Below, one piece after another: positions 38,853-55,123 of a stretch of 64,000 bases of DNA. The DNA is from Bacteroidota bacterium. GTDB taxonomy: Bacteria > Bacteroidota > Bacteroidia > Chitinophagales > LD1. How positions within the stretch are numbered: position 1 is the stretch's first letter; each line of letters begins with the position of its first letter. The stretch lies in contig CANJRM010000002.1 of NCBI GenBank assembly GCA_947476645.1, positions 189 through 64,188 on the forward strand, read 5' to 3'. The position numbers were made by a program, and so were the translations under genes. The notes under the pieces were generated by a model. That model was given only the letters and a program-made list of their open reading frames with translations, searched no databases and had not been told where the DNA came from.

Positions 38853-41800
38853 GTGAATCGTTTCAAGATAGTTACGCGCATATTACTTGCATTGCTCCTT
38901 AGCCAGAGCCAATGGTCAACGGTCAATGCTCAATCTCTTTCAAACATTCGCTTCAAAAATTTTTCTACTAAAAGCGATACGCTACTACTCGACAGCTTGA
39001 GTGTGGTGCCAAATACGATTGCGGTGCGAAGCAGCGGAAATGAAATTTTAGATTCTTCTGCTTACATCATCAAAGCATTTGAATCGAAATTGATTTGGAA
39101 GAAAAAGCCGACTACTGATTCAGTGAAAATATTTTTTCGCGTGTATCCGTTTGCGCTGGCACACGAAACTTATAACAAGAGCTATCAGAAATATTTAGAT
39201 GCCAATTCCAACACCATCGTTCGTCCATTCATTTACAACCCCGATGAAGAAGGAACTAAACTGATTGACTTCGGAAGCCTGGACTACAACGGAAGTTTTG
39301 CTCGAAGCATTGCTTTTGGTAGCAATCAGGATGTGGTGCTCAATTCGCTTTTCAATTTGCAGTTGAGCGGTATGCTCACCAAAGATTTAGAAATTACGGC
39401 TGCCATCACCGATAGTAATATTCCCATTCAACCCGAAGGCAACACGCAACAGATTCAGGAGTTCGACAAAATTTTTATTCAGATACGCAAAGACCAGCAC
39501 AAGATAATTGTGGGCGATTTTGATTTGTATAATCCCGAGAAAGATTATTTCATGAAGTTTTCTAAAAAATATCAGGGCGGAAGTTACAGCGGCTCGTTTG
39601 ATGTAAAAAAAGTGGGCGTGGTAAAAACAGCGGTTGCCGGTGGAATTTCGAAAGGAAAATTTGCGCGCAATACACTCGTGGTAAAAGAAGGCAATCAAGG
39701 ACCTTATAAATTATCAGGGGCAAATGGCGAAACCTACATTGTGATTTTAGCAAACAGCGAAGAGGTATTTATTAATGGAGCTAAAATGGAACGCGGTGCT
39801 AATCGCGATTACATTATTGATTACAACCTTGGCGAAATAACTTTTATGCCGCGCAGAGTAATTTCAAAAGACCTGCGCATTGTGGTGGAGTTTGAATACA
39901 GCGACAGAAATTATTTGCGCTCGGCCGCTTTTGTAAATACCGAATTGCTGACCAAACATGCCGATGTGCATTTTAGTCTTTACAGCGAGCAGGACAGCAA
40001 AAATCAAAGCGTGCAGCAAAGTTTAAATGCCGATAAAAAACTTTTTCTCTCTACTCTTGGTGACAGCGTTCAAAATGCATTTTACAAAGGTTGGGACAGT
40101 GTAACCTATGATGCCAATCGTGTTTTGTATGAAAAAAAGGATACGCTACTCGATTCGCTCTACACTATTTTCATTTACTCTACCGATACCACCAAAGCAA
40201 AATACTCAGTCAACTTCACTTACAAGGGCGATGGAAACGGAAATTATTATCTCTCTTCTTCTACGGCTAACGGAAGGGTCTATCAATGGGTGGCACCATA
40301 CATTGACAGCACCGGAAAAAAATATTTGCAGGGCTCTTATGAGCCCGTAATTTTTCTGGTTACTCCAAAGTATCAGCAGATGTATGAAGTAGGTGCCGAT
40401 TTCAGAATCAATAAATCGAACACGCTCTCTACCTCATTAGCTATGAGCAACACCGACCCGAATATGTTTTCGACTAAGGACAATAATTCGCATCTCGGTT
40501 TTGCAGCACGCGCAAATTATCACGGTGCAGTGGTTACTAAAAACGATTCGGTGCGAAGAAAAAATCAGAGCATCATTTATGATTTAAATTACGAGTTCAT
40601 TCAAAATAAATTCAACACCATTGAACGATTCAGAAACGTTGAATTCAATCGCGACTGGAATTTGACCACACAGGAAAAAAGATACAACGAACATCTCGGC
40701 ACAGCATCAGTCGGTTATTTGTGGAATGGTTTGGGCACTATCAATTATCGTTTCAAAACCTTTATTCAGGATTCTGTTTATCGCGGTTTTGAAAACGGTT
40801 TCAATGGAAATTTTTCGAAGAATGGGTTCAATTTGTCTTTCGCCAACTCCTATTTGAATTCTTCTTCCACTACCAACAAATCAAACTACATACGTCCGAA
40901 AGCAGATTTGTTTTACGCCTCACAAAAGATGAATGGCTGGCGAGTAGGTGTGTTGTATGACCATGAAATAAACATGCTCAAAAACAAAAATGCCGATACA
41001 CTTTCTTCGAATAGTTACTTGTGGCAGAACTATAAAGTCTATGCCAACAATGCCGATTCATCAGTCAACAAATTCGGTATTGAATTTACCATGCGTTATG
41101 AGCATCGCGCTTTAGGCAACAGTTTTGCCAAGGCATTTTATGGCGCACAGTCTATAAATGTAAACGGGCAAATTAATTCACTAAAGAATCAAATACTTAA
41201 TTACAGTTTCACTTATCGTCACGCAAAGAATCTGGATTCACTCAACACAGCGCAGCCCGAACATTTTTATTTGGGAAGAGTAGATTACAGCTTCACTATT
41301 CTTAAAGGAGTTATTCGCTCAACAACTTTGTATGAAATAGGAACGGGTCGCCAGCAGAAAACACAGGTTATTTATATCGCTTCACCTACTAACCAAGGTG
41401 ATTTTATTTATCCGACTGATGGAGATAAAAATCATAACGGAGTAAAAGATATTTCCGAGTTTGTTCTTCGTCCTACCGGTTTCACTTACGACTCTTCTTA
41501 CTTCCGAACTTTTATTGTTACTCCCGAATTTGTTTCTGTCAACACCAATCAATTCAACGAAGTGCTCAATATAAATCCTGCTGCTGTGTGGAAGAACAAA
41601 GGCGGAGTGCGTGGCTTTGTAGCTAGGTTTAGTTTGTTTGGAAGTATCTCCATCACTAAAAAAACCTTTGCCGAGAAGAATAAAAAGGTGGGCGACTACT
41701 TTAATCCCATTCCATTGAAAAAAGAAAACGACCAGTTGGTTTCTACAGCTATAAGCAGTAGGAATTCACTTTTCTTTAATCGTCTTGACCCTAAGTATGG

Positions 41801-42422
41801 ATTTCAATTTGATTTTAATTACGCGCGCAATCGAACGTTGCTTACTTCCGGTTACGAGAATCGGGCGATACAATCGCAAGGAGTTACTATTCGTTGGAAT
41901 GCTTTCAAATCGTTCAACATTCAAAGCACTTATACCAATGGTATGAAATCGAATCAATCTGATTTCTATAGTGACCTTAAATACCGTTTCACTTATAACG
42001 ATGCCAATTTAGATTTGAGTTATCAGTTCAAAACATTTTTGCGAATTGGTTTAAAATACGATTTCAGCATGAAGGTAAATCCTACCGATTTCGTTGGCAA
42101 ACAAACCGCACAACAACACAAACTCACCTTGCAGGGAAGATACAATCGTCAGGGCAAGAATGCTGTGGAAGCAAATCTTTCTTATGCTTCCATAAAATAC
42201 ATCGACAAAAATTTCCCCAATCAGCAATTGGAGTACGCTATGCTCGAAGGCTTGCGAAACGGAAATAATTTAGTTTGGAATTTGAGTTACTCGCAAACCC
42301 TGCTCAACAATATTCAGCTAACGATTAGTTACGATGGTCGCATGACAGGTTTCACCGCAGGCGATAAATCAACCATGAAACCGATTCACACAGGCAGAGC
42401 AGAAATAAGAGCAGTATTTTAG
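38853..42422 (+). CDS. large predicted outer-membrane beta-barrel protein, unknown function
   Basis: 1189 aa, GTG start, signal peptide (LLALLLSQSQWSTVNAQ). Long region of alternating Tyr/Asn/Ser-rich beta-strand-like segments and a C-terminal ...AEIRAVF ending in Phe, as in OM beta-barrels. No family recognised. Confidence 0.6.
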   Translation: MNRFKIVTRILLALLLSQSQWSTVNAQSLSNIRFKNFSTKSDTLLLDSLSVVPNTIAVRSSGNEILDSSAYIIKAFESKLIWKKKPTTDSVKIFFRVYPFALAHETYNKSYQKYLDANSNTIVRPFIYNPDEEGTKLIDFGSLDYNGSFARSIAFGSNQDVVLNSLFNLQLSGMLTKDLEITAAITDSNIPIQPEGNTQQIQEFDKIFIQIRKDQHKIIVGDFDLYNPEKDYFMKFSKKYQGGSYSGSFDVKKVGVVKTAVAGGISKGKFARNTLVVKEGNQGPYKLSGANGETYIVILANSEEVFINGAKMERGANRDYIIDYNLGEITFMPRRVISKDLRIVVEFEYSDRNYLRSAAFVNTELLTKHADVHFSLYSEQDSKNQSVQQSLNADKKLFLSTLGDSVQNAFYKGWDSVTYDANRVLYEKKDTLLDSLYTIFIYSTDTTKAKYSVNFTYKGDGNGNYYLSSSTANGRVYQWVAPYIDSTGKKYLQGSYEPVIFLVTPKYQQMYEVGADFRINKSNTLSTSLAMSNTDPNMFSTKDNNSHLGFAARANYHGAVVTKNDSVRRKNQSIIYDLNYEFIQNKFNTIERFRNVEFNRDWNLTTQEKRYNEHLGTASVGYLWNGLGTINYRFKTFIQDSVYRGFENGFNGNFSKNGFNLSFANSYLNSSSTTNKSNYIRPKADLFYASQKMNGWRVGVLYDHEINMLKNKNADTLSSNSYLWQNYKVYANNADSSVNKFGIEFTMRYEHRALGNSFAKAFYGAQSINVNGQINSLKNQILNYSFTYRHAKNLDSLNTAQPEHFYLGRVDYSFTILKGVIRSTTLYEIGTGRQQKTQVIYIASPTNQGDFIYPTDGDKNHNGVKDISEFVLRPTGFTYDSSYFRTFIVTPEFVSVNTNQFNEVLNINPAAVWKNKGGVRGFVARFSLFGSISITKKTFAEKNKKVGDYFNPIPLKKENDQLVSTAISSRNSLFFNRLDPKYGFQFDFNYARNRTLLTSGYENRAIQSQGVTIRWNAFKSFNIQSTYTNGMKSNQSDFYSDLKYRFTYNDANLDLSYQFKTFLRIGLKYDFSMKVNPTDFVGKQTAQQHKLTLQGRYNRQGKNAVEANLSYASIKYIDKNFPNQQLEYAMLEGLRNGNNLVWNLSYSQTLLNNIQLTISYDGRMTGFTAGDKSTMKPIHTGRAEIRAVF

Positions 42423-44568: not shown

Positions 44569-47500
44569 TTATTGCAGCATTGTAATTGTTCCTTTATAAT
44601 CTGAATCGCTGTGATTGTTCATCCACACAAATTTTGCGTAGTAGGTATAAACTCCGGGAGGCGAATGCACGCCTTTGTAATTCCCATCCCATTTAAAATC
44701 GAGTTCGTTACTCTGAAAAACTTTTTCACCGATGCGGTTAAACACCGCTACTTCCACTTGCTTTATTCCCCTCAACCTTCCAAACATTTGCCAGAAATCA
44801 TTAACGCCATCACCGTTTGGTGTAAAGGCATTTGGTAAAAACACATCGTAAATGGGAATCACTTTTGCAGTAAAATTAAACGTGCCGATGCACCCCGCAT
44901 CATTCGTAGCTACTACTAAATAATTTTGCGAGTAAACTCCGCTGAAAAGAGGTGCAGTGCAATCGTAACAAGTCAAACCAAATTTCGGACTCCAGTCAAA
45001 ATATACATTGCCGCTTTGGTTTGTAGTTGACGAAAGTTGCAACTCATCTCCCAGTTTTACTTCTGTTGGGTTAGGCGTAATGTCAATCAAAACAGAATCG
45101 GGTTGCGTAACCGTTGCAGAATCTGTAATGGTGCAACCATTAGCATCGGTAACAGTTACCGAATATGTTCCGGCAATTAATCCGGTCAGCAATCCTGTAT
45201 CAGCCATCAAGCCCGTAGAAAATTCAAATGAATACTGCGGCACACCGCCTGCAACAGTTACACTAACTCTTCCATGGGAGTAATGGTAACAAGTGGTTGG
45301 AGTTGGAGTTGCAATATCAGTTAAAACAGGAGGCTCATTCACCATAATTGTTCCTGTGGTTACACAGGCATGTTGGTCAGTTACGCTCACGCTATAATTT
45401 CCGGCAAAAAGATTTTGAAATTGTCCTGATGCCGCATTGAGAATATTTACACCATCGGGAGTTGCAGAAAAATTATAAGGCAATACTCCGCCCGAACCTG
45501 TTGCTGTAATTGTCCCTGTGTTATCACCATTGCAAAGCACATCTGTTTCGGTTGTGGTTAAAACTATGGCAGGCGGCTCGGTAACGTTTGCTGTTTGAAT
45601 CAATGAACAGCCATGCGCATCTGTAACCGTTGCGCTATACAATCCGGCAGGAATACTTGTTACAGTATTCGTTGCAGAAACATTTGGGCTCCATGCGTAA
45701 GAATAAATTGGCGTTCCACCATTCACCGTAATATCTATTGAACCAGTGCTATTGCCATTACACAAAACATCTACATGCGTTTCGGAACTTGTAAGCAAAG
45801 GCGGTTGAGTTAAGCCAAAACTTGCAGTGCCACTGCAACCGTTGTTGTCGGTTACAGTAACCTGATAAGTTCCTATAGGAAGTGATGAAGCAGAACCTGT
45901 CGAAGTGATATTCGGGTTCCAGTTGTAGATGTAAGGAAAAGTTCCGCCTGTTGCATTGGTAGCTACAGTTCCATCATTGCTTTGGAAACAAGTTAAATCA
46001 GTAGCAACAGTATCGAGTGTAAGCGGTTGGTTAGGTTGAGAAATTACAACGTTAGGAACCACGCTGCAACCGTTGGCATCGGCAACAGTAATGGAATAAG
46101 AATTCGGAGTTAATCCGGTTGCAGAATTTGTAGTGCTTACATTAGGATTCCATGTGTAAGTATAATTTGGTGTGCCACCCGAAGTTCCAATAGTGATAGT
46201 GCCGTTATTAAAACCAAAACAACTTACGTTGGTGGAAGAAACATTTATAGTAAGCGGTTGCGAAGGTTGTGTAAGCGTAACCGAAATTGTTTTCTGACAA
46301 TTAGTTTGGTCAATCACTGTAACATTATAAGTATTTGCTGCAAGTGAAGTGGCTACGTTCGACAAACTCACATTCGGATTCCAGTTGTAAGAATAATTTG
46401 GTCCTACTCCACCACTCACGTTTAAAGTTATATCGCCTGTTGCATCACCAAAGCAGGCAATGTTTGTGTGCGTTTGATTGATTACAATATCTGTAGGCTG
46501 TGTAATCGTGAACGCAATTACCTGACTGCATCCGTTTGCATCTAAAACTGTTCCACCATAATTATTCGGAGCAAGCACGGTGAGGTTTGTTACACCCGCA
46601 GGAATCGCAACTCCGAGATAAGTATAAGGCGGTGTTCCTCCGCCTATAGTAATTGCAGCCGTTCCATCATTCGCTCCAAAGCAGGTGACGTTTGTTGAAG
46701 TTACTGTTGCACTCAACGCTGTTGCAGGTTGAGTAATGTTATAAGTTGCAGAAGTGGAACACGAATTCAAATCAGTAATTGTCACGGTGTAATTTCCCGC
46801 GCTCAAACCTGTATTGGTAAAAACAGTTGGTCCATTTGGATTGACTGCCGATGGCACTGAACTCCACAAGGCAGTATATGGTTGTGTTCCTGTAGAAACT
46901 GTTGCTGTTGCATTTCCTGTAGTTGCACCATTGCACGCAACGTTTGTATGTGTTGGTGTAATTACCGGCACAGGATAAATAACCACTTGATGCGTTTGCG
47001 TAGCAGTGCACAAACTCTGGTCGGTGATGGTGAGTAGCACATTGAAAGTTCCAACGATAGGGAAAGTGTGAATTGGATTTTGTGCGTGAACCACCGGAGT
47101 GCCATCACCAAAATCCCAGGCATAATCAACAATATTACTCAAGCCCGAAGTAGCGGTGCTTTGAAAATGAACGGTATCTACTCCGCAAGCAGTGTAATTT
47201 GTTCCTCCCAAAAAGTCGGAAGTGAAGTGCACACAAACCGATTGCGTGTTGAACGCACCACCTGTTGCCCCTGTCCATCCCCAATATACATTCGGGTTTC
47301 CTGCAAAAATTGAATTAGCTAAACCACCGGGAAAAGTATACTGCAAGCGAAAAACGCCATCGAAATAAACAGATAAAGTTTCTGTGGCAGGATTCCATAC
47401 AAAACGAATGGTATGCCATGCACCGTCTTCTACATCGGCAGAACTGCCACTCATTTGAACAGGTCCGACTACTGGGGCAGAGATGTTTCCATTTATATCA

Positions 47501-47901
47501 AGTGCCAAATGATCGGCAGCTATATCTGCTGCGCCCCCGCCATTGTCGTAAGTATCTAATTCAATACCTATTGATTGATTAGGGAAACCCGAGTACCCCA
47601 TGCCACCACCTAATGAAGGTGGAGCAGTATTGTTTGTGTTTTGCAGAACAAAAACAATTCCGTCAGCTCCATCATCATGCGTTCCTAAAAAAACATCGAA
47701 AGTAAAATCGAAAGGATTGGTCAAATTCAATTGATTCAAGTTCCACATAGAGCCTGCCTGACTTCCTACATTATCTGTGAGTTGATAGCACTGGCAACTT
47801 TGCTGAATCGTATTGCCATAGTAATTCCATATTTGTGAATAGGAGCGAACCGCCACTAAACTAAACAGAAAGAAAAGTAATGCCTGTAGATTTTTTTTCA
47901 T
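44569..47901 (-). CDS. giant T9SS type B cargo: L-type lectin-like domain + PKD domain + multiple SprB-type repeats + gliding-motility C-terminal domain
   Basis: 1110 aa with a signal peptide. Lectin-like block (GADGIVFVLQN...IGIELDTYDN...ADHLALDING) and PKD-like WDFGDGT. About 9 repeats of C-x-G-x3-G-x7-GG-x-P-Y-x-Y-x-W type. C-terminus is FLPNAFTPNGDGVNDFW (CHU_C / type B sorting domain). Confidence 0.85.
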   Translation of the reverse strand: MKKNLQALLFFLFSLVAVRSYSQIWNYYGNTIQQSCQCYQLTDNVGSQAGSMWNLNQLNLTNPFDFTFDVFLGTHDDGADGIVFVLQNTNNTAPPSLGGGMGYSGFPNQSIGIELDTYDNGGGAADIAADHLALDINGNISAPVVGPVQMSGSSADVEDGAWHTIRFVWNPATETLSVYFDGVFRLQYTFPGGLANSIFAGNPNVYWGWTGATGGAFNTQSVCVHFTSDFLGGTNYTACGVDTVHFQSTATSGLSNIVDYAWDFGDGTPVVHAQNPIHTFPIVGTFNVLLTITDQSLCTATQTHQVVIYPVPVITPTHTNVACNGATTGNATATVSTGTQPYTALWSSVPSAVNPNGPTVFTNTGLSAGNYTVTITDLNSCSTSATYNITQPATALSATVTSTNVTCFGANDGTAAITIGGGTPPYTYLGVAIPAGVTNLTVLAPNNYGGTVLDANGCSQVIAFTITQPTDIVINQTHTNIACFGDATGDITLNVSGGVGPNYSYNWNPNVSLSNVATSLAANTYNVTVIDQTNCQKTISVTLTQPSQPLTINVSSTNVSCFGFNNGTITIGTSGGTPNYTYTWNPNVSTTNSATGLTPNSYSITVADANGCSVVPNVVISQPNQPLTLDTVATDLTCFQSNDGTVATNATGGTFPYIYNWNPNITSTGSASSLPIGTYQVTVTDNNGCSGTASFGLTQPPLLTSSETHVDVLCNGNSTGSIDITVNGGTPIYSYAWSPNVSATNTVTSIPAGLYSATVTDAHGCSLIQTANVTEPPAIVLTTTETDVLCNGDNTGTITATGSGGVLPYNFSATPDGVNILNAASGQFQNLFAGNYSVSVTDQHACVTTGTIMVNEPPVLTDIATPTPTTCYHYSHGRVSVTVAGGVPQYSFEFSTGLMADTGLLTGLIAGTYSVTVTDANGCTITDSATVTQPDSVLIDITPNPTEVKLGDELQLSSTTNQSGNVYFDWSPKFGLTCYDCTAPLFSGVYSQNYLVVATNDAGCIGTFNFTAKVIPIYDVFLPNAFTPNGDGVNDFWQMFGRLRGIKQVEVAVFNRIGEKVFQSNELDFKWDGNYKGVHSPPGVYTYYAKFVWMNNHSDSDYKGTITMLQ

Positions 47902-51393: not shown

Positions 51394-51488
51394 GTGTATG
51401 GTAATTATTGTTGTAAAACGGGTGCGAATGTAATCGCAAAATGCTATTGACAAAAGCCGATTATATTCGCTCAACAAAAACAAAAATT

Positions 51489-52100
51489 ATGATAGCACTT
51501 CCACTTTCAATTCTGGCTTTAGCAGCAGGCGTTCATTTACTTATAAAAGTAAAACGCGAATTTATGGGCACTCTTTTTTCTGTGCTTGCCTGGCTCGTTA
51601 TCGGACTTTCGTTGGCAAACATTGGTTTGATTGGCAAAAGAGTCGTTCATCGTTTTTGTGTAAATCATTGCGAAGGCGGGAACACGTGCAAAATGGAAAA
51701 GGAAATCATTATCAAAGATGACGGCATGGGACATTGCACTAAAGATAGTTCATCTACTTGCACCATGGGCGGTTGTAAAATGGAAGGCGACAGTGTAGTG
51801 ATGGAGAAAGAAATGTGCAGCAAGATGATGGGTGCGGAAAAATGCGAAGCTATGTGTAAAGAACGAGGCCGTTGTATTATGAGTAAAGAGGAATGTATGA
51901 GCATGTGTCACGCTGCTGGTAAACCTTGTTGTGCAGAGAAATCTATGGGCGGTTGTCCAATGCATAAGGAAGGATGTAAGGGTGATTGCTCGGGTAAGTG
52001 TGCGGGAAAATGCGAGGAGAAATGCGAATCCGGCAAAAAAGAGTGTTGTTCTAAAGATGGTGAAAGCGAAAAGAAGACATGTTGCAAACACAAGATGTAA
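51489..52100 (+). CDS. membrane-anchored Cys/Met-rich metallothionein-like protein (novel)
   Basis: 203 aa from the ATG at 51489. Two N-terminal hydrophobic helices, then ~147 aa containing 24 Cys (counted), ~15 Met and several His, with CxxxC runs (GDCSGKCAGKCEEKCE), CC pairs and many Lys/Glu. Confidence 0.6.
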   Translation: MIALPLSILALAAGVHLLIKVKREFMGTLFSVLAWLVIGLSLANIGLIGKRVVHRFCVNHCEGGNTCKMEKEIIIKDDGMGHCTKDSSSTCTMGGCKMEGDSVVMEKEMCSKMMGAEKCEAMCKERGRCIMSKEECMSMCHAAGKPCCAEKSMGGCPMHKEGCKGDCSGKCAGKCEEKCESGKKECCSKDGESEKKTCCKHKM

Positions 52101-52110
52101 GAAAATCCAT

Positions 52111-52150
52111 TTGAATTTAGTCCGTGTAAATCTGTGTATCTGTGGCAACA
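52111..52150 (+). repeat. start-proximal repeat element, third copy (TTGAATTTAGTCCGTGTAAATCTGTGTATCTGTGGCAAC)
   Basis: Shares the TTGAATTTA prefix and the GTGTAA(A)TC...ATCTGTG core with 38181-38229 and 23234-23270. Overlaps the GTG start at 52142. Confidence 0.6.
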
Positions 52151-52795
52151 AATGATTTTGAAATCTATCTCCGTCCTACAAAGTTTATTGATAGCGACCA
52201 TCCCAAGGTAATTGAATACGCTCACGCAAAAACTTCTGCCGATAAAACAGATAATCAAAAAGCTGTTGACCTTTATCTCGCTGTGCGCGATGAAATTCTT
52301 TACAATCCCTACAACCTTATTCTAATTCCTGAAGAAATTTCCGCATCCAAAACGTTGGAACGCGGTCAGGGTTATTGTATTGAAAAATCATTGCTGTTAT
52401 GTGCCGCAGCAAGAGTTCATAATATTCCATCTCGATTGGGTTTTTCCATTGTGCAGAATCATCTTTCTACAAAAAAATTTGTGGAGATGCTGCGCACCGA
52501 CAAATTTGTTTTTCATGGCTATAACGAATTTTGGCTCGATGGCAAATGGGTGAAATGCACCCCTGCATTCAACAAGAGTTTATGCGAAAAATTCGGAACC
52601 AACGCACTTGATTTCGATGGCACACACGATTCCATTTTCCAGGAATTTAATGGTGGCAAAAAATACATGAACTACTTACACGAGTACGGACAGTTCGATG
52701 ATTTCCCTTTCGATTTGTTTGTGGCTGAATTAAAAGTTCACTACCCGCATTTGTTTGAAGAAGCAAATGGAAATGCATTCTCTTGGGGACAATAG
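52142..52795 (+). CDS. transglutaminase-like cysteine protease superfamily protein
   Basis: 217 aa, GTG start. GQGYCIEKSLLLCAAARVHNIPSR (catalytic Cys context) with downstream FHGYNEFWLDGKWV (His) and Asp. Confidence 0.7.
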   Translation: MATNDFEIYLRPTKFIDSDHPKVIEYAHAKTSADKTDNQKAVDLYLAVRDEILYNPYNLILIPEEISASKTLERGQGYCIEKSLLLCAAARVHNIPSRLGFSIVQNHLSTKKFVEMLRTDKFVFHGYNEFWLDGKWVKCTPAFNKSLCEKFGTNALDFDGTHDSIFQEFNGGKKYMNYLHEYGQFDDFPFDLFVAELKVHYPHLFEEANGNAFSWGQ

Positions 52796-52797
52796 CT

Positions 52798-53760
52798 TCA
52801 CTCTATTGAAAGATACGGTTGAAGCTTTCTGAAAACACTATCGTTCATCACAGCAATCTTTCTCAGGTCTTCTACAGTTTTAAAATTCCCGTGCTCCTTC
52901 TTGTAAGCCATAAAAATCTTTGCTAAAGAGTAATTGATATAAGGATGCTTGCGTAGCGTCTCAAAATCATCGCTATTAAGTTTTATTTTCTTCAGCGCAA
53001 TTTCATTCACCACAAATTTGTCTTTCAAACTTTGATACGTGCTGTCAGGAAAATTCCAGACTTCCTTTATCTGCACTGCTGAAACAAAACCTCCTAACCG
53101 CTCTCTGTATTTAATAACTCGGCTTGCCAGCGAAGGCCCAATTCCTCTCTGCCTTTCAAACAAAGATGAATCTGCTATATTGATATCCACCACATATTTT
53201 TCTTTCTGCTTTTCAGGATAAACTGTTTTTGAAAATTCCTTCTTAGGAAAATCGTTCGGGTCAATTTTTATATAAGCCGAAAGACGATTGTAATTTTCTT
53301 CGCCCACCACAAAAACACTTTTCAAATCTTCCGGCTTTCGAAATTTATATCCCTTGTCTTTCAACTTCTCAATACTCGCTGCCTGCTTCGCACTAAACCC
53401 AAGTTTTATCCATTCAGCCACTCCGATTTTATTCGGGTCAAATTGGAAGTAGGCAATCTTGCGCTCTTCTTTCTTTTTGAGACTTGAACTTGAATCAAGA
53501 GTTAAATCTCTGCTCACAATAAGAAGGCTGTCTTTCTTAATGCTATCAGCTAACAAAGCAAGTTGCTTCTTTTCGTTGAACTCCTTTATAAAAGCATCAA
53601 CTTCCTTTTGGTAAGGAGAATTATCGGCATGCTGAATAGGTTTGTAATAGAGGTAGGTTGCGGGAACAATAAACACAAGCAACGATGCAAGAACCAGAAA
53701 AATGATTCCCGCTTTTTCTCCCTGTGTAAAGATCAGATATCTTTCAAGCCAACGCCACAT
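52798..53760 (-). CDS. ComEA-like helix-hairpin-helix DNA-binding protein
   Basis: Start moved to Met31 (MWRWLERYL..., followed by a TM anchor). Repeated HhH-type segments (GIGPSLASRVIKYRERLGGF, FETLRKHPYINYSLAKIF). Confidence 0.65.
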   Translation of the reverse strand: MWRWLERYLIFTQGEKAGIIFLVLASLLVFIVPATYLYYKPIQHADNSPYQKEVDAFIKEFNEKKQLALLADSIKKDSLLIVSRDLTLDSSSSLKKKEERKIAYFQFDPNKIGVAEWIKLGFSAKQAASIEKLKDKGYKFRKPEDLKSVFVVGEENYNRLSAYIKIDPNDFPKKEFSKTVYPEKQKEKYVVDINIADSSLFERQRGIGPSLASRVIKYRERLGGFVSAVQIKEVWNFPDSTYQSLKDKFVVNEIALKKIKLNSDDFETLRKHPYINYSLAKIFMAYKKEHGNFKTVEDLRKIAVMNDSVFRKLQPYLSIE

Positions 53761-53821
53761 GCTGCAATTTAAAAAAAGTCTTTGCTGCTTAAAAACTACC
53801 TTATTTTTTACTTTCGATGTA

Positions 53822-55123
53822 ATGTCTGCCAAAGAAATTTTTCTTACCACGTTCTACTTACTGTTTTTCAATCTGCTGATTTATCGGTTCAAGATTTTTC
53901 AATTCAAAAATTTCAAGCCACTCGTTACCCACGTTTTATTCAATCTGAAATTTGTAGTAGGCATTTTTATTTGGTTCATCTACACCTTCTACTACAAGGA
54001 TGTTCAGAACAATGATGTCCATAAGTTTTACAACGATGCTTTAATACTTCGAAATACAGCCAACGAAAACCCGCAGGCATTTTTTCAATTGCTGATTGGA
54101 AAGGAAGATGAATCCACTTTGCTATTCGCTTCTCAAATGAAAAACTGGGAGCGCAATTTTGATGAAGCTCCGGTGAATGAAAACAAAACCATCATTCGCC
54201 TCAATGCGCTGCTGATATTTCTTTCGTTCAAAACTTATTTCGTTCACATTCTGTTTATGTGTTTCATGTCGTTGGTTGGTTTCATTCTTATTACTAATTC
54301 CATTTTCGGTTTTACTGACATCAAAAATTCCCTTCTTGCCATTCCGGTTTTGTTTCTCCCTTCAGTTTTATTCTGGACAAGCGGAGTAATGAAAGAACCC
54401 GTTTTAATTTTAGGGCTTGGCTTGTTTGTCTATAGCATTACACATTGGGGAACGCGTAATTCAATCAGCGCTCTTGCAACAGGTTCATTAATTATTCTCT
54501 TTACTAAGTTTTTCGTTCTCGCTTGCTTGCTTCCCGCAACAATTGCCTATCTCCTATTCCGTAAAAACGAAACACCAAAATTTATTCTGCTCAAATATCT
54601 TTTCATCAATTTGGTTTTGTTGTTGCTTGCTTTCAATGTTCGCAACATAGTTCCCAAAATAAACTTGCAGCAAATGCTCATTAATAAGCAAACACACTCC
54701 GTAAAAGAAGCCGAGTATTTCAAAGCAGGCAGCAGAATTGAAATTCCCGAATTAAAAGACGATGTCGTGAGTATTCTAAAAACTTCCGCTGTCGGAATCT
54801 GGAACACCATCACACGTCCTTATGTCTGGGAAACCAAAAATATGATGATGCTCGCAAGCGCTGTCGAAAATTTTTTCATCATTCCTTTCCTGCTTATGTG
54901 GAATGCTTTTAGAAACAGAAAACACAGCACAAACCTTAACCTCTTCTTATTTCTATTGACAGTCTCTCTTACATACTTCGCTATCGTAGGAATCTGCACA
55001 CCGGCTCTCGGCAATCTCGTTCGCTATAAAACTCCTCTCCTCGTTCTATTCATGTTTGCTTTTATTATCCGAGTTAACTCGAAATACATTCCCGAGAGTT
55101 TGAGTTTCGCATTGCGCAAATAG
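53822..55123 (+). CDS. polytopic integral membrane protein, unknown function
   Basis: Start moved to the ATG at 53822. ~434 aa with ~10 TM helices. Resembles glycosyltransferase-C-type or O-antigen-polymerase-like membrane proteins only in general architecture. Confidence 0.5.
   Translation: MSAKEIFLTTFYLLFFNLLIYRFKIFQFKNFKPLVTHVLFNLKFVVGIFIWFIYTFYYKDVQNNDVHKFYNDALILRNTANENPQAFFQLLIGKEDESTLLFASQMKNWERNFDEAPVNENKTIIRLNALLIFLSFKTYFVHILFMCFMSLVGFILITNSIFGFTDIKNSLLAIPVLFLPSVLFWTSGVMKEPVLILGLGLFVYSITHWGTRNSISALATGSLIILFTKFFVLACLLPATIAYLLFRKNETPKFILLKYLFINLVLLLLAFNVRNIVPKINLQQMLINKQTHSVKEAEYFKAGSRIEIPELKDDVVSILKTSAVGIWNTITRPYVWETKNMMMLASAVENFFIIPFLLMWNAFRNRKHSTNLNLFLFLLTVSLTYFAIVGICTPALGNLVRYKTPLLVLFMFAFIIRVNSKYIPESLSFALRK

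Follow-up and report, generated by a model that had tools for sequence, protein, structure and literature searches.

A hairpin-anchored, cysteine- and methionine-rich protein from an unannotated Bacteroidota superfamily

INTRODUCTION

Most models of periplasmic copper handling stem from Proteobacteria, with CusF, CopC, PcoE/SilE and Csp1 as the familiar examples, and little is known of how copper and other soft metals are buffered and routed in the periplasm of Bacteroidota. Here we describe a gene for a membrane protein extremely rich in cysteine (Cys) and methionine (Met), found in a 64,000-nucleotide stretch of DNA from a Bacteroidota bacterium of the Chitinophagales (assembly GCA_947476645.1, contig CANJRM010000002.1, positions 189 to 64,188 of the forward strand); we refer to this whole stretch as the window and number positions from its first letter. 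A preliminary description, made from the sequence without database searches, had taken the gene product for a membrane-anchored, metallothionein-like protein outside any described family.

Several described systems bear some resemblance to such a protein. SmtA-type metallothioneins are soluble cytoplasmic proteins of about 55 residues with a zinc-finger-like fold and no Met richness, and MerF, MerT and MerE are small inner-membrane proteins of two or three helices that use vicinal Cys pairs. Outside the cytoplasm, Csp1 and the gonococcal protein NGO1701 are exported, Cys-lined Cu(I) stores (PMC12510493, PMC9484137), while SilE is a disordered periplasmic metal sponge in which composition is conserved over sequence; SilE and PcoE are soluble proteins without Cys whose genes lie within sil/pco resistance operons on mobile elements (PMC5008109). 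Bacteroidota also possess a general O-glycosylation system with the sequon D-(S/T)-(V/T/A/I/L/M), which modifies only non-cytoplasmic proteins, and the O-glycosylated sites of membrane proteins in this phylum mostly face the periplasm (PMC12871550, PMC8550257).

RESULTS

A conserved gene outside the described families

A recount of the open reading frame (ORF; Table 1) bears out its outline in the preliminary description: two hydrophobic N-terminal helices precede a tail of 147 residues (57-203) that contains 24 Cys, 15 Met, 5 histidine (His; 3.4%), 24 lysine (Lys) and 19 glutamate (Glu) residues. Cys makes up 16.3% of the tail compared with 1.1% of the 7,025 residues encoded by neighboring genes (binomial P = 4e-21), and Met 10.2% compared with 1.5% (P = 7e-9). 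The regular CxxxC run (C163/167/171/175/179) and the three CC pairs (147-148, 186-187 and 198-199) that had been described are all present, along with one CPMH motif at residues 156-159.

A search of 5.8 billion proteins returned 83 homologue clusters, all of them unnamed or labeled 'hypothetical', and a survey of one genome per GTDB species located 36 loci, all in uncultured Chitinophagales or Bacteroidota metagenome-assembled genomes. Compared with eight orthologues, substitutions by codon position of the plus frame numbered 297, 219 and 707, so the excess at third positions marks this frame as coding, which the preliminary description had left to be decided. The homologue clusters, the species loci, the third-position substitutions and a −7 promoter box kept in the orthologous loci show that this is a real gene, maintained by purifying selection.

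No described family includes the Cys-rich protein. Scanning the protein itself, all 84 family members and 10 distant relatives against Pfam and NCBIfam yielded only sub-threshold noise (GED, DUF202, Dba and MIGRI); sequence-profile searches of the PDB, made with alignments of the core and of the full length, had no match better than E = 0.17, and Foldseek comparisons of the full and core-only models with the PDB found nothing below E = 6. The metallothionein model PF02069 (Metallothio_Pro) did not match the window protein at E ≤ 10, a threshold at which Pfam returned only noise to GED, nor any of the 84 members at E ≤ 0.01. A search with a profile of the hairpin only, aimed at named relatives in cultured species, gave 5 matches, all unnamed, and cluster look-ups returned 'hypothetical protein' only. 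Because the Pfam, NCBIfam, PDB-sequence and Foldseek-PDB comparisons all came back empty, the protein is not a member of the SmtA/BmtA, Csp, SilE/PcoE or Mer groups. The earlier supposition that no described family accounts for it thus stands with the 83 homologues included, whereas the term metallothionein-like holds for composition but not for descent, since no homology to SmtA/BmtA or Csp was found.

One branch of a wider superfamily

Profile searches (hmmsearch, E < 1e-3) of 1.84 billion representative proteins gathered 294 clusters at 50% identity, all unannotated. Members beyond the close family are 85-200 residues long and carry the same hairpin (LLALxAGxFLLAKTKKExLGxFFKxxSWFxI), the pattern shared across the superfamily being LLALxAGxxLLxKxxKExLGxxFKxxxWxxI. 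The superfamily tails are of low complexity, with 14% glycine, 13% Lys, 12% Cys, 11% Met, 10% Glu and 5% His, and a further shared feature is a terminal (K/A)DS(V/T)xxKK motif such as KDSVVIKK, ADSTAKK or KDTVIVKK. When the close family was aligned with the distant relatives by hhalign, the two matched over 82 columns with a probability of 99.8% (E = 1.5e-27), and the window ORF matched the distant-relative profile at 2.9e-16. The window protein is therefore one branch of a wider, unannotated Bacteroidota superfamily defined by a hairpin, a Cys/Met/His-rich tail and a D-S/T sequon. The window subfamily has the DS motif (GDSVVM) inside the tail, where the beta-hairpin of the core turns, and the conserved Cys-containing helical module that follows it is an addition of this subfamily.

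Sequon enrichment and membrane topology

The D-S/T motif of the superfamily tails corresponds exactly to the O-glycosylation sequon, which we counted in 129 non-redundant tails and in composition-preserving shuffles of them. D[ST][AILVMT] was observed 108 times against 10.4 ± 3.2 expected, an enrichment of about 10-fold among sequences that are homologous and hence not independent counts. The control patterns were not enriched in this way, with 7 observed against 15.9 expected for E[ST][AILVMT], 5 against 6.8 for N[ST][AILVMT], 14 against 21.8 for K[ST][AILVMT], 18 against 25.9 for G[ST][AILVMT], and 31 against 28.7 for D[ST] followed by a non-sequon residue. The sequon occurs in 241 of 303 tails compared with 24.5 expected, and DS is the most over-represented dipeptide of the tails. 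Its place shifts between internal and C-terminal, and its copy number varies, with 2-4 copies in the clusters P0111, P0213 and P0202 (four in P0111); moving and multiplying in this manner is what a short functional motif would be expected to do.

The window tail carries the sequon as D101-S102-V103 in its soluble region, where G100, D101 and S102 are invariant in an alignment of 34 sequences and at least 90% conserved in all 84; no other short motif of the tail is conserved as well. The loop between the two helices holds on average 2.4 lysine or arginine residues (K+R) in 6.6 residues, and the N-terminus 0.3. From the sequon enrichment, the basic loop and the uncharged N-terminus we infer a hairpin with both termini outside and a tail that faces the periplasm, where it is probably O-glycosylated at D101-S102-V103.

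Protein anatomy

Alignments of 34 and 84 sequences and AlphaFold2 models of the full-length protein and of the core divide the protein into an anchor, a variable, disordered linker, a folded core and a disordered C-terminus (Table 1). Both helices of the anchor are predicted confidently, and the close family shares the hairpin consensus MxALPLSILALAAGVYLLIKVKRE..LAWLVI. The core, with the consensus CKMEGDSVVMDKAxCEKMMGKEACxxMxKERGRCIMSKEECxKMC, reaches a predicted local distance difference test score (pLDDT) of 87-92 at residues 101-140 in the full model and a mean of 81 in the core-only model, and its Cys residues C96, C110, C119, C129, C136, C140 and C147 are 94-99% conserved. Beyond it, pLDDT falls below 50 at residues 154-203 except for short stretches at 165-169 and 198; C156, C198 and C199 are nevertheless 78-95% conserved, and the C-terminal consensus is KKxCCKKK.

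Altogether 13 Cys columns are at least 83% conserved among the 84 sequences, so that the Cys positions are maintained by the family, a point on which the preliminary description had made its reading depend. Two of its emphases need adjustment. The CxxxC run that it singled out belongs to an insertion found in only about 17-25% of homologues, and no tandem repeat underlies it in the DNA. The tail is also more than a plain low-complexity thiolate stretch, as residues 94-150 are confidently predicted to fold.

Table 1. Features of the Cys/Met-rich gene, its product and the adjoining regions, in window coordinates
Feature	Position	Strand	Remarks
Cys/Met-rich protein, coding sequence	51489..52100	+	203 aa plus stop; ORF confirmed; 83 homologue clusters, 36 GTDB species loci
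Transmembrane helix 1 (residues 2-19, IALPLSILALAAGVHLLI)	51492..51545	+	AlphaFold2 helix 3-22; best-conserved part of family and superfamily
Short basic loop K20-V-K-R-E24	51546..51560	+	KxxK(E/D) kept across superfamily; probably on cytoplasmic side (positive-inside rule plus sequon)
Transmembrane helix 2 (residues 25-49, W35)	51561..51635	+	AlphaFold2 helix 27-61; W35 invariant in 84 sequences
Juxtamembrane linker (residues 50-93)	51636..51767	+	Predicted disordered, pLDDT <50 at 64-93; C61, C67 and C83 conserved 83-90%
Folded core (residues 94-150)	51768..51938	+	Predicted beta-hairpin, two helices, short strand, third helix
D101-S102-V103 sequon match	51789..51797	+	At turn of core beta-hairpin
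Disordered Cys-rich C-terminal tail (residues 151-203)	51939..52097	+	CPMH, CxxxC run, conserved terminal CC-K-H-K-M
CxxxC run (residues 163-179, CSGKCAGKCEEKC)	51975..52025	+	Optional insertion module; columns gapped in 75-99% of homologues
−7 promoter box TATATTCG	51462..51469	+	19 nt upstream of ATG; Bacteroidota-type, consensus TAnnTTTG
Intergenic element ATTGACAAAAG (ATTGCCAAAAA in most orthologues)	51446..51456		Conserved across orthologous upstream regions
−7-like box TACATTCG	51425..51432	−	For divergent 4HBT thioesterase gene; GCGAATGTAA conserved in orthologous loci
Transglutaminase-core gene	52142..52795	+	217 aa, without signal peptide; Pfam Transglut_core E = 5.5e-16

Metal ligands or disulfides

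Across the superfamily, the composition of the tails is kept while their sequence drifts. Vicinal CC pairs occur 158 times compared with 80 expected and CPM 17 times compared with 2.5, and MM and HH are also enriched. Vicinal CC pairs are classic metal ligands and poor disulfide formers. Even totals of Cys are not in excess: in the close family 32 counts are even and 49 odd, and the distant relatives have 69 of each; the core alone varies from 7 to 11 Cys, and C123 is present in only about half of the family. With no preference for even numbers, a variable core count and C123 so often absent, an obligatorily disulfide-bonded domain is unlikely. The enriched motifs, taken with the Cys parity, favor binding of soft metals of the Cu(I) type over disulfides, and the richness in Met points to Cu(I) or silver, Ag(I), rather than zinc. 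Both metal binding and the choice of metal are read from composition and motifs. Since these thiolate and thioether hallmarks have extracytoplasmic precedents in SilE, Csp1 and NGO1701, we favor a soft-metal buffer or chaperone, and put the probability that the tail is a membrane-tethered periplasmic soft-metal binder at roughly 40%.

The same residues could also serve a periplasmic redox or oxidant buffer (a sink for oxidants such as HOCl or peroxides, either sacrificial or recyclable), or build a disulfide-knotted core with another envelope function and no metal role. The probable periplasmic location would suit this, as would the six near-invariant core Cys, the i/i+4 helix pairs C119/C123 and C136/C140 with their spacing reminiscent of twin CX3C motifs, and a housekeeping context free of metal genes. 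However, the number of Cys is not conserved, the distribution of C123 means that a strict twin-CX3C disulfide pair is not conserved either, and the two-fold enriched CC pairs are ill suited to forming disulfides. Nor is a thioredoxin-like, DsbD/CcdA or Msr gene linked to the family, SelR genes being found at a single locus (L048). We regard this explanation as unlikely.

Genomic context and the side of the membrane

The neighborhood in the window was described correctly from the sequence: Pfam annotation identifies the divergent thioesterase-tsaC pair upstream, where a TonB-dependent receptor, Sua5/TsaC and a 4HBT thioesterase are encoded on the minus strand, and the transglutaminase-like gene downstream, and no metal regulator or P-type ATPase occurs in the roughly 25 kb annotated (38.8-63.6 kb). 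These neighbors are conserved in the close family, with thioesterase and TsaC divergent upstream and the transglutaminase-core gene downstream. In about 32 of 42 loci the latter is the next gene on this strand, even where the upstream context differs, and no intrinsic terminator was found between it and the Cys-rich gene, with which it is probably co-transcribed. Judging by identities of 35-87% across loci compared with 72-100% for its neighbors, the Cys-rich protein evolves faster than they do. A 147-aa gene that lies divergently upstream in one subfamily of distant relatives has no relationship to the thioesterase of the window.

Distant relatives mostly stand alone beside housekeeping genes, for example L21/L27, yceD-rpmF-plsX-fabH or an aminotransferase, and eight of their neighborhoods show varied housekeeping functions except for P0294, which has the window's own synteny. 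The preliminary description had proposed that the neighborhoods of homologues be surveyed for metal efflux and regulator genes; in about 50 loci, no consistent link to metals emerged. A possible association with metal genes through SCO1/SenC with DUF420 and CtaA looked promising in single loci, and was set aside when tblastn restricted it to only two or three closely related loci.

If the transglutaminase-like enzyme modified the Cys-rich protein, the tail would be expected on the inner side of the membrane. This leads to a second alternative, a membrane-tethered metallothionein facing the cytoplasm, with both termini cytoplasmic, whose reduced tail would sequester cytoplasmic Cu(I), Zn or Cd on the inner side of the membrane and might be a substrate of the co-transcribed enzyme. 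Cys-rich metal-thiolate proteins are typically cytoplasmic, there is no even-Cys excess, the first 15 tail residues contain 2.8 K+R, slightly above the loop, and the downstream gene, present in about three-quarters of the loci with no terminator between, lacks a signal peptide. On the other hand, the conserved KxxK(E/D) loop would then be periplasmic, the 10-fold enriched extracytoplasmic sequon with its specific requirement for Asp would be left without explanation, and a high content of Met and His is what SilE and other periplasmic Cu(I)/Ag(I) binders typically show. On balance such a cytoplasm-facing metallothionein appears improbable.

Other observations were made in this neighborhood. 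Neither NCBIfam nor the PDB gives a match for the transglutaminase-core protein, whose identity between loci is 72-94% and whose gene stays paired with the Cys-rich gene in two different upstream contexts. Many orthologous loci (L011-L032) have a YceI-like gene between the TonB-dependent receptor and TsaC genes, of which tblastn found no copy in the window. Further away, Pfam matches nothing at E ≤ 0.001 in the ORF at 38853-42422 (+; 1,189 aa), and 44569-47901 (−) encodes a large type IX secretion cargo protein with a legume-lectin domain, a PKD domain, seven SprB repeats and a CHU_C sorting domain. A multi-pass membrane ORF of 473 aa without a Pfam match (53702-55123, +) overlaps the 5′ end of a divergent ComEA-like gene with a triple HHH_3 domain (52798-53850, −); because the listed ORFs overlap by 149 nt, the start of one or both probably lies further in.

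An ancestral hairpin with a dispensable tail?

The hairpin is the best-conserved part of the protein, and two superfamily members, P0213 and P0202, keep it with tails almost free of Cys that carry DSVHIPP three times and DSINHTGG twice, respectively. Such Cys-poor tails with repeated sequons suggest that the hairpin and the glycosylation motif form the ancestral core of the superfamily. In a third alternative, the essential parts would be the hairpin and the glycosylated motif of an envelope protein that might serve as a small membrane scaffold or belong to another complex as subunit or regulator, with the Cys/Met/His-rich composition of the tail secondary, a tolerated low-complexity spacer; the distant relatives standing alone in core-genome contexts fit this as well. 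Yet the combined share of Cys, Met and His in the tails is 28% over hundreds of divergent sequences, which requires selection on composition, and the window subfamily has its highly conserved Cys columns and a conserved folded Cys core. Such a role unrelated to metals is about as improbable, in our estimate, as a cytoplasm-facing metallothionein.

Gene start, promoter and antisense frames

Translation starts at ATG 51489 and not at the upstream ATG 51441, because every homologue begins with MxALPLS and the conserved −7 box lies inside the longer ORF. This box is kept as TTATATTCGC or TTATCTTTGC 19-25 nt 5′ of the ATG in nearly every orthologous locus, and presumably corresponds to the −7 consensus of Bacteroidetes promoters; the promoter looks like the standard housekeeping type. 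No riboswitch or RNA family was found. The start codon of the divergent thioesterase (ATG at 51393-51391) was placed using the lengths of its homologues (145-154 aa). Between the two divergent −7 boxes lies the ATTGCCAAAAA element, at the same position in L007-L045, which could be a −33 region or a shared operator.

Two long ORFs on the opposite strand, 51750-52151 (−) and 51908-52258 (−), had been named as possible true genes in the preliminary description. They arise because the codons for Lys, Glu, Gly, Cys and Met (AAR, GAR, GGN, TGY and ATG) rarely yield antisense stops, and the stop-free stretches differ erratically among orthologues, from 44 to 183 aa. That one of these antisense ORFs and not the Cys-rich frame is the real coding sequence has a negligible chance of being right: long antisense ORFs do exist over the gene, and one shares its third codon positions with the plus frame, so that the codon-position test does not formally exclude it, but the plus frame is open and alignable from end to end in all orthologues with hairpin, core and C-terminus conserved, a conserved promoter box precedes its start, and one of the antisense ORFs (51908-52258) overruns into the well-conserved transglutaminase-like gene. 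Such antisense ORFs recur, at variable length, in the orthologues of this gene and are a trap for gene callers.

DISCUSSION

A proposed tethered periplasmic metal buffer

The reading that we prefer, that of a soft-metal binder tethered in the periplasm, can be put together as follows. A small inner-membrane protein would be anchored by a two-helix hairpin, both of its termini lying outside and the K-V-K-R-E loop on the cytoplasmic side. Its tail of about 150 residues would extend into the periplasm as a disordered linker, the folded Cys core (residues 94-150) and a disordered Cys-rich C-terminus, and the general Bacteroidota glycosylation system would modify D101-S102-V103. Cys thiolates, Met thioethers and His would bind soft metals, Cu(I) first and then Zn, Cd or Ag, making the protein a constitutive, membrane-tethered metal buffer or chaperone. 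A broader proposal, which we consider doubtful, is that many Bacteroidota possess a class of housekeeping, O-glycosylated, inner-membrane-tethered periplasmic metallothionein-like proteins. On the outer side of the cytoplasmic membrane these would act as buffers or donors of Cu(I) and perhaps of further soft metals, with the Chitinophagales branch having added a small Cys-containing folded domain.

Several findings weigh against a periplasmic metal buffer. The roughly 50 loci of close and distant relatives do not consistently have a gene for metal homeostasis, a metal sensor or an efflux pump close by, and for want of this genomic link metal binding stays hypothetical. The standard promoter and the ribosomal-protein and lipid-synthesis neighbors of distant relatives suggest constitutive expression, not inducible resistance. 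On topology, the start of the tail is about as basic as the loop (2.8 and 2.4 K+R), so the positive-inside rule alone does not fix the orientation, and the transglutaminase-like partner appears cytoplasmic, which, if it acts on the tail, would place the tail there too. The sequon evidence is tempered by the homology among the sequences counted and by the DSC found at the motif in about 30% of the close family, Cys as third residue being only occasionally seen at glycosylated sites (PMC12871550). Finally, an oxidizing periplasm could leave many of the tail Cys disulfide-bonded.

If the metal hypothesis is true, the family would represent a different solution to periplasmic copper and soft-metal buffering from those described in Proteobacteria, and would supply a new small Cys-bearing fold, a new family of natural high-capacity metal-binding sequences, and an example of a glycosylation sequon conserved beyond the rest of a disordered tail, with a bearing on the role of O-glycosylation in Bacteroidota. 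Should the housekeeping, glycosylated periplasmic class exist as proposed, it would be the first membrane-anchored periplasmic metallothionein system. Even if the metal hypothesis is wrong, an unannotated superfamily of 294 clusters, whose architecture is sharply drawn and for which neither Pfam nor NCBIfam has a model, merits a family definition.

Comparison with known systems

Two further classes were considered and ruled out: a precursor of a ribosomally synthesized and post-translationally modified peptide (RiPP) or lasso peptide, suggested by the transglutaminase-like neighbor, was rejected because the protein has a conserved membrane hairpin and a folded core and is accompanied by no cyclase or radical-SAM partner, and heme binding would call for a CxxCH motif, which the protein lacks.

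The window protein is like SmtA/BmtA in being extremely rich in Cys, with some His, in its Cys spacings of the CxC, CC and CxxC types and in the metal-thiolate cluster that it presumably forms; unlike them, it has 203 residues, a two-helix anchor, 10% Met, a different predicted core fold and a probably periplasmic location. Csp1 and Csp3 also have many Cys, including CxxxC on helices, but they are Cys-lined four-helix bundles of the DUF326 type, whereas the window protein is predicted to have a core of one beta-hairpin and three short helices, flanked by disordered segments; in contrast to the soluble, Tat-exported Csp, it is anchored by a hairpin, its CxxxC run is optional, and no profile match connects the two. 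MerF, MerT and MerE resemble it as small membrane proteins with a CC pair near the C-terminus, yet here helix 1 (IALPLSILALAAGVHLLI) has no Cys, no mer genes are nearby, no Pfam match was obtained and the soluble tail is far longer.

The likeness to SilE and PcoE lies in the distant superfamily members, which are similarly rich in Met and His and keep composition more than sequence. Unlike those two, the window family is membrane-tethered, Cys-rich (24 Cys in the window protein) and chromosomal, without nearby metal genes or sequence similarity; in the window protein a hairpin anchor takes the place of a signal peptide, and its neighborhood is free of sil, pco and cus genes. With the substrates of Bacteroidota O-glycosylation, which are a class of modification targets and not a protein family, it shares, as a candidate substrate, the D-(S/T)-(A/I/L/V/M/T) sequon in a soluble region beside a membrane anchor. 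What is new with respect to all of these is the wider Bacteroidota superfamily, the small predicted folded core and the glycosylation sequon that points to a periplasmic tail.

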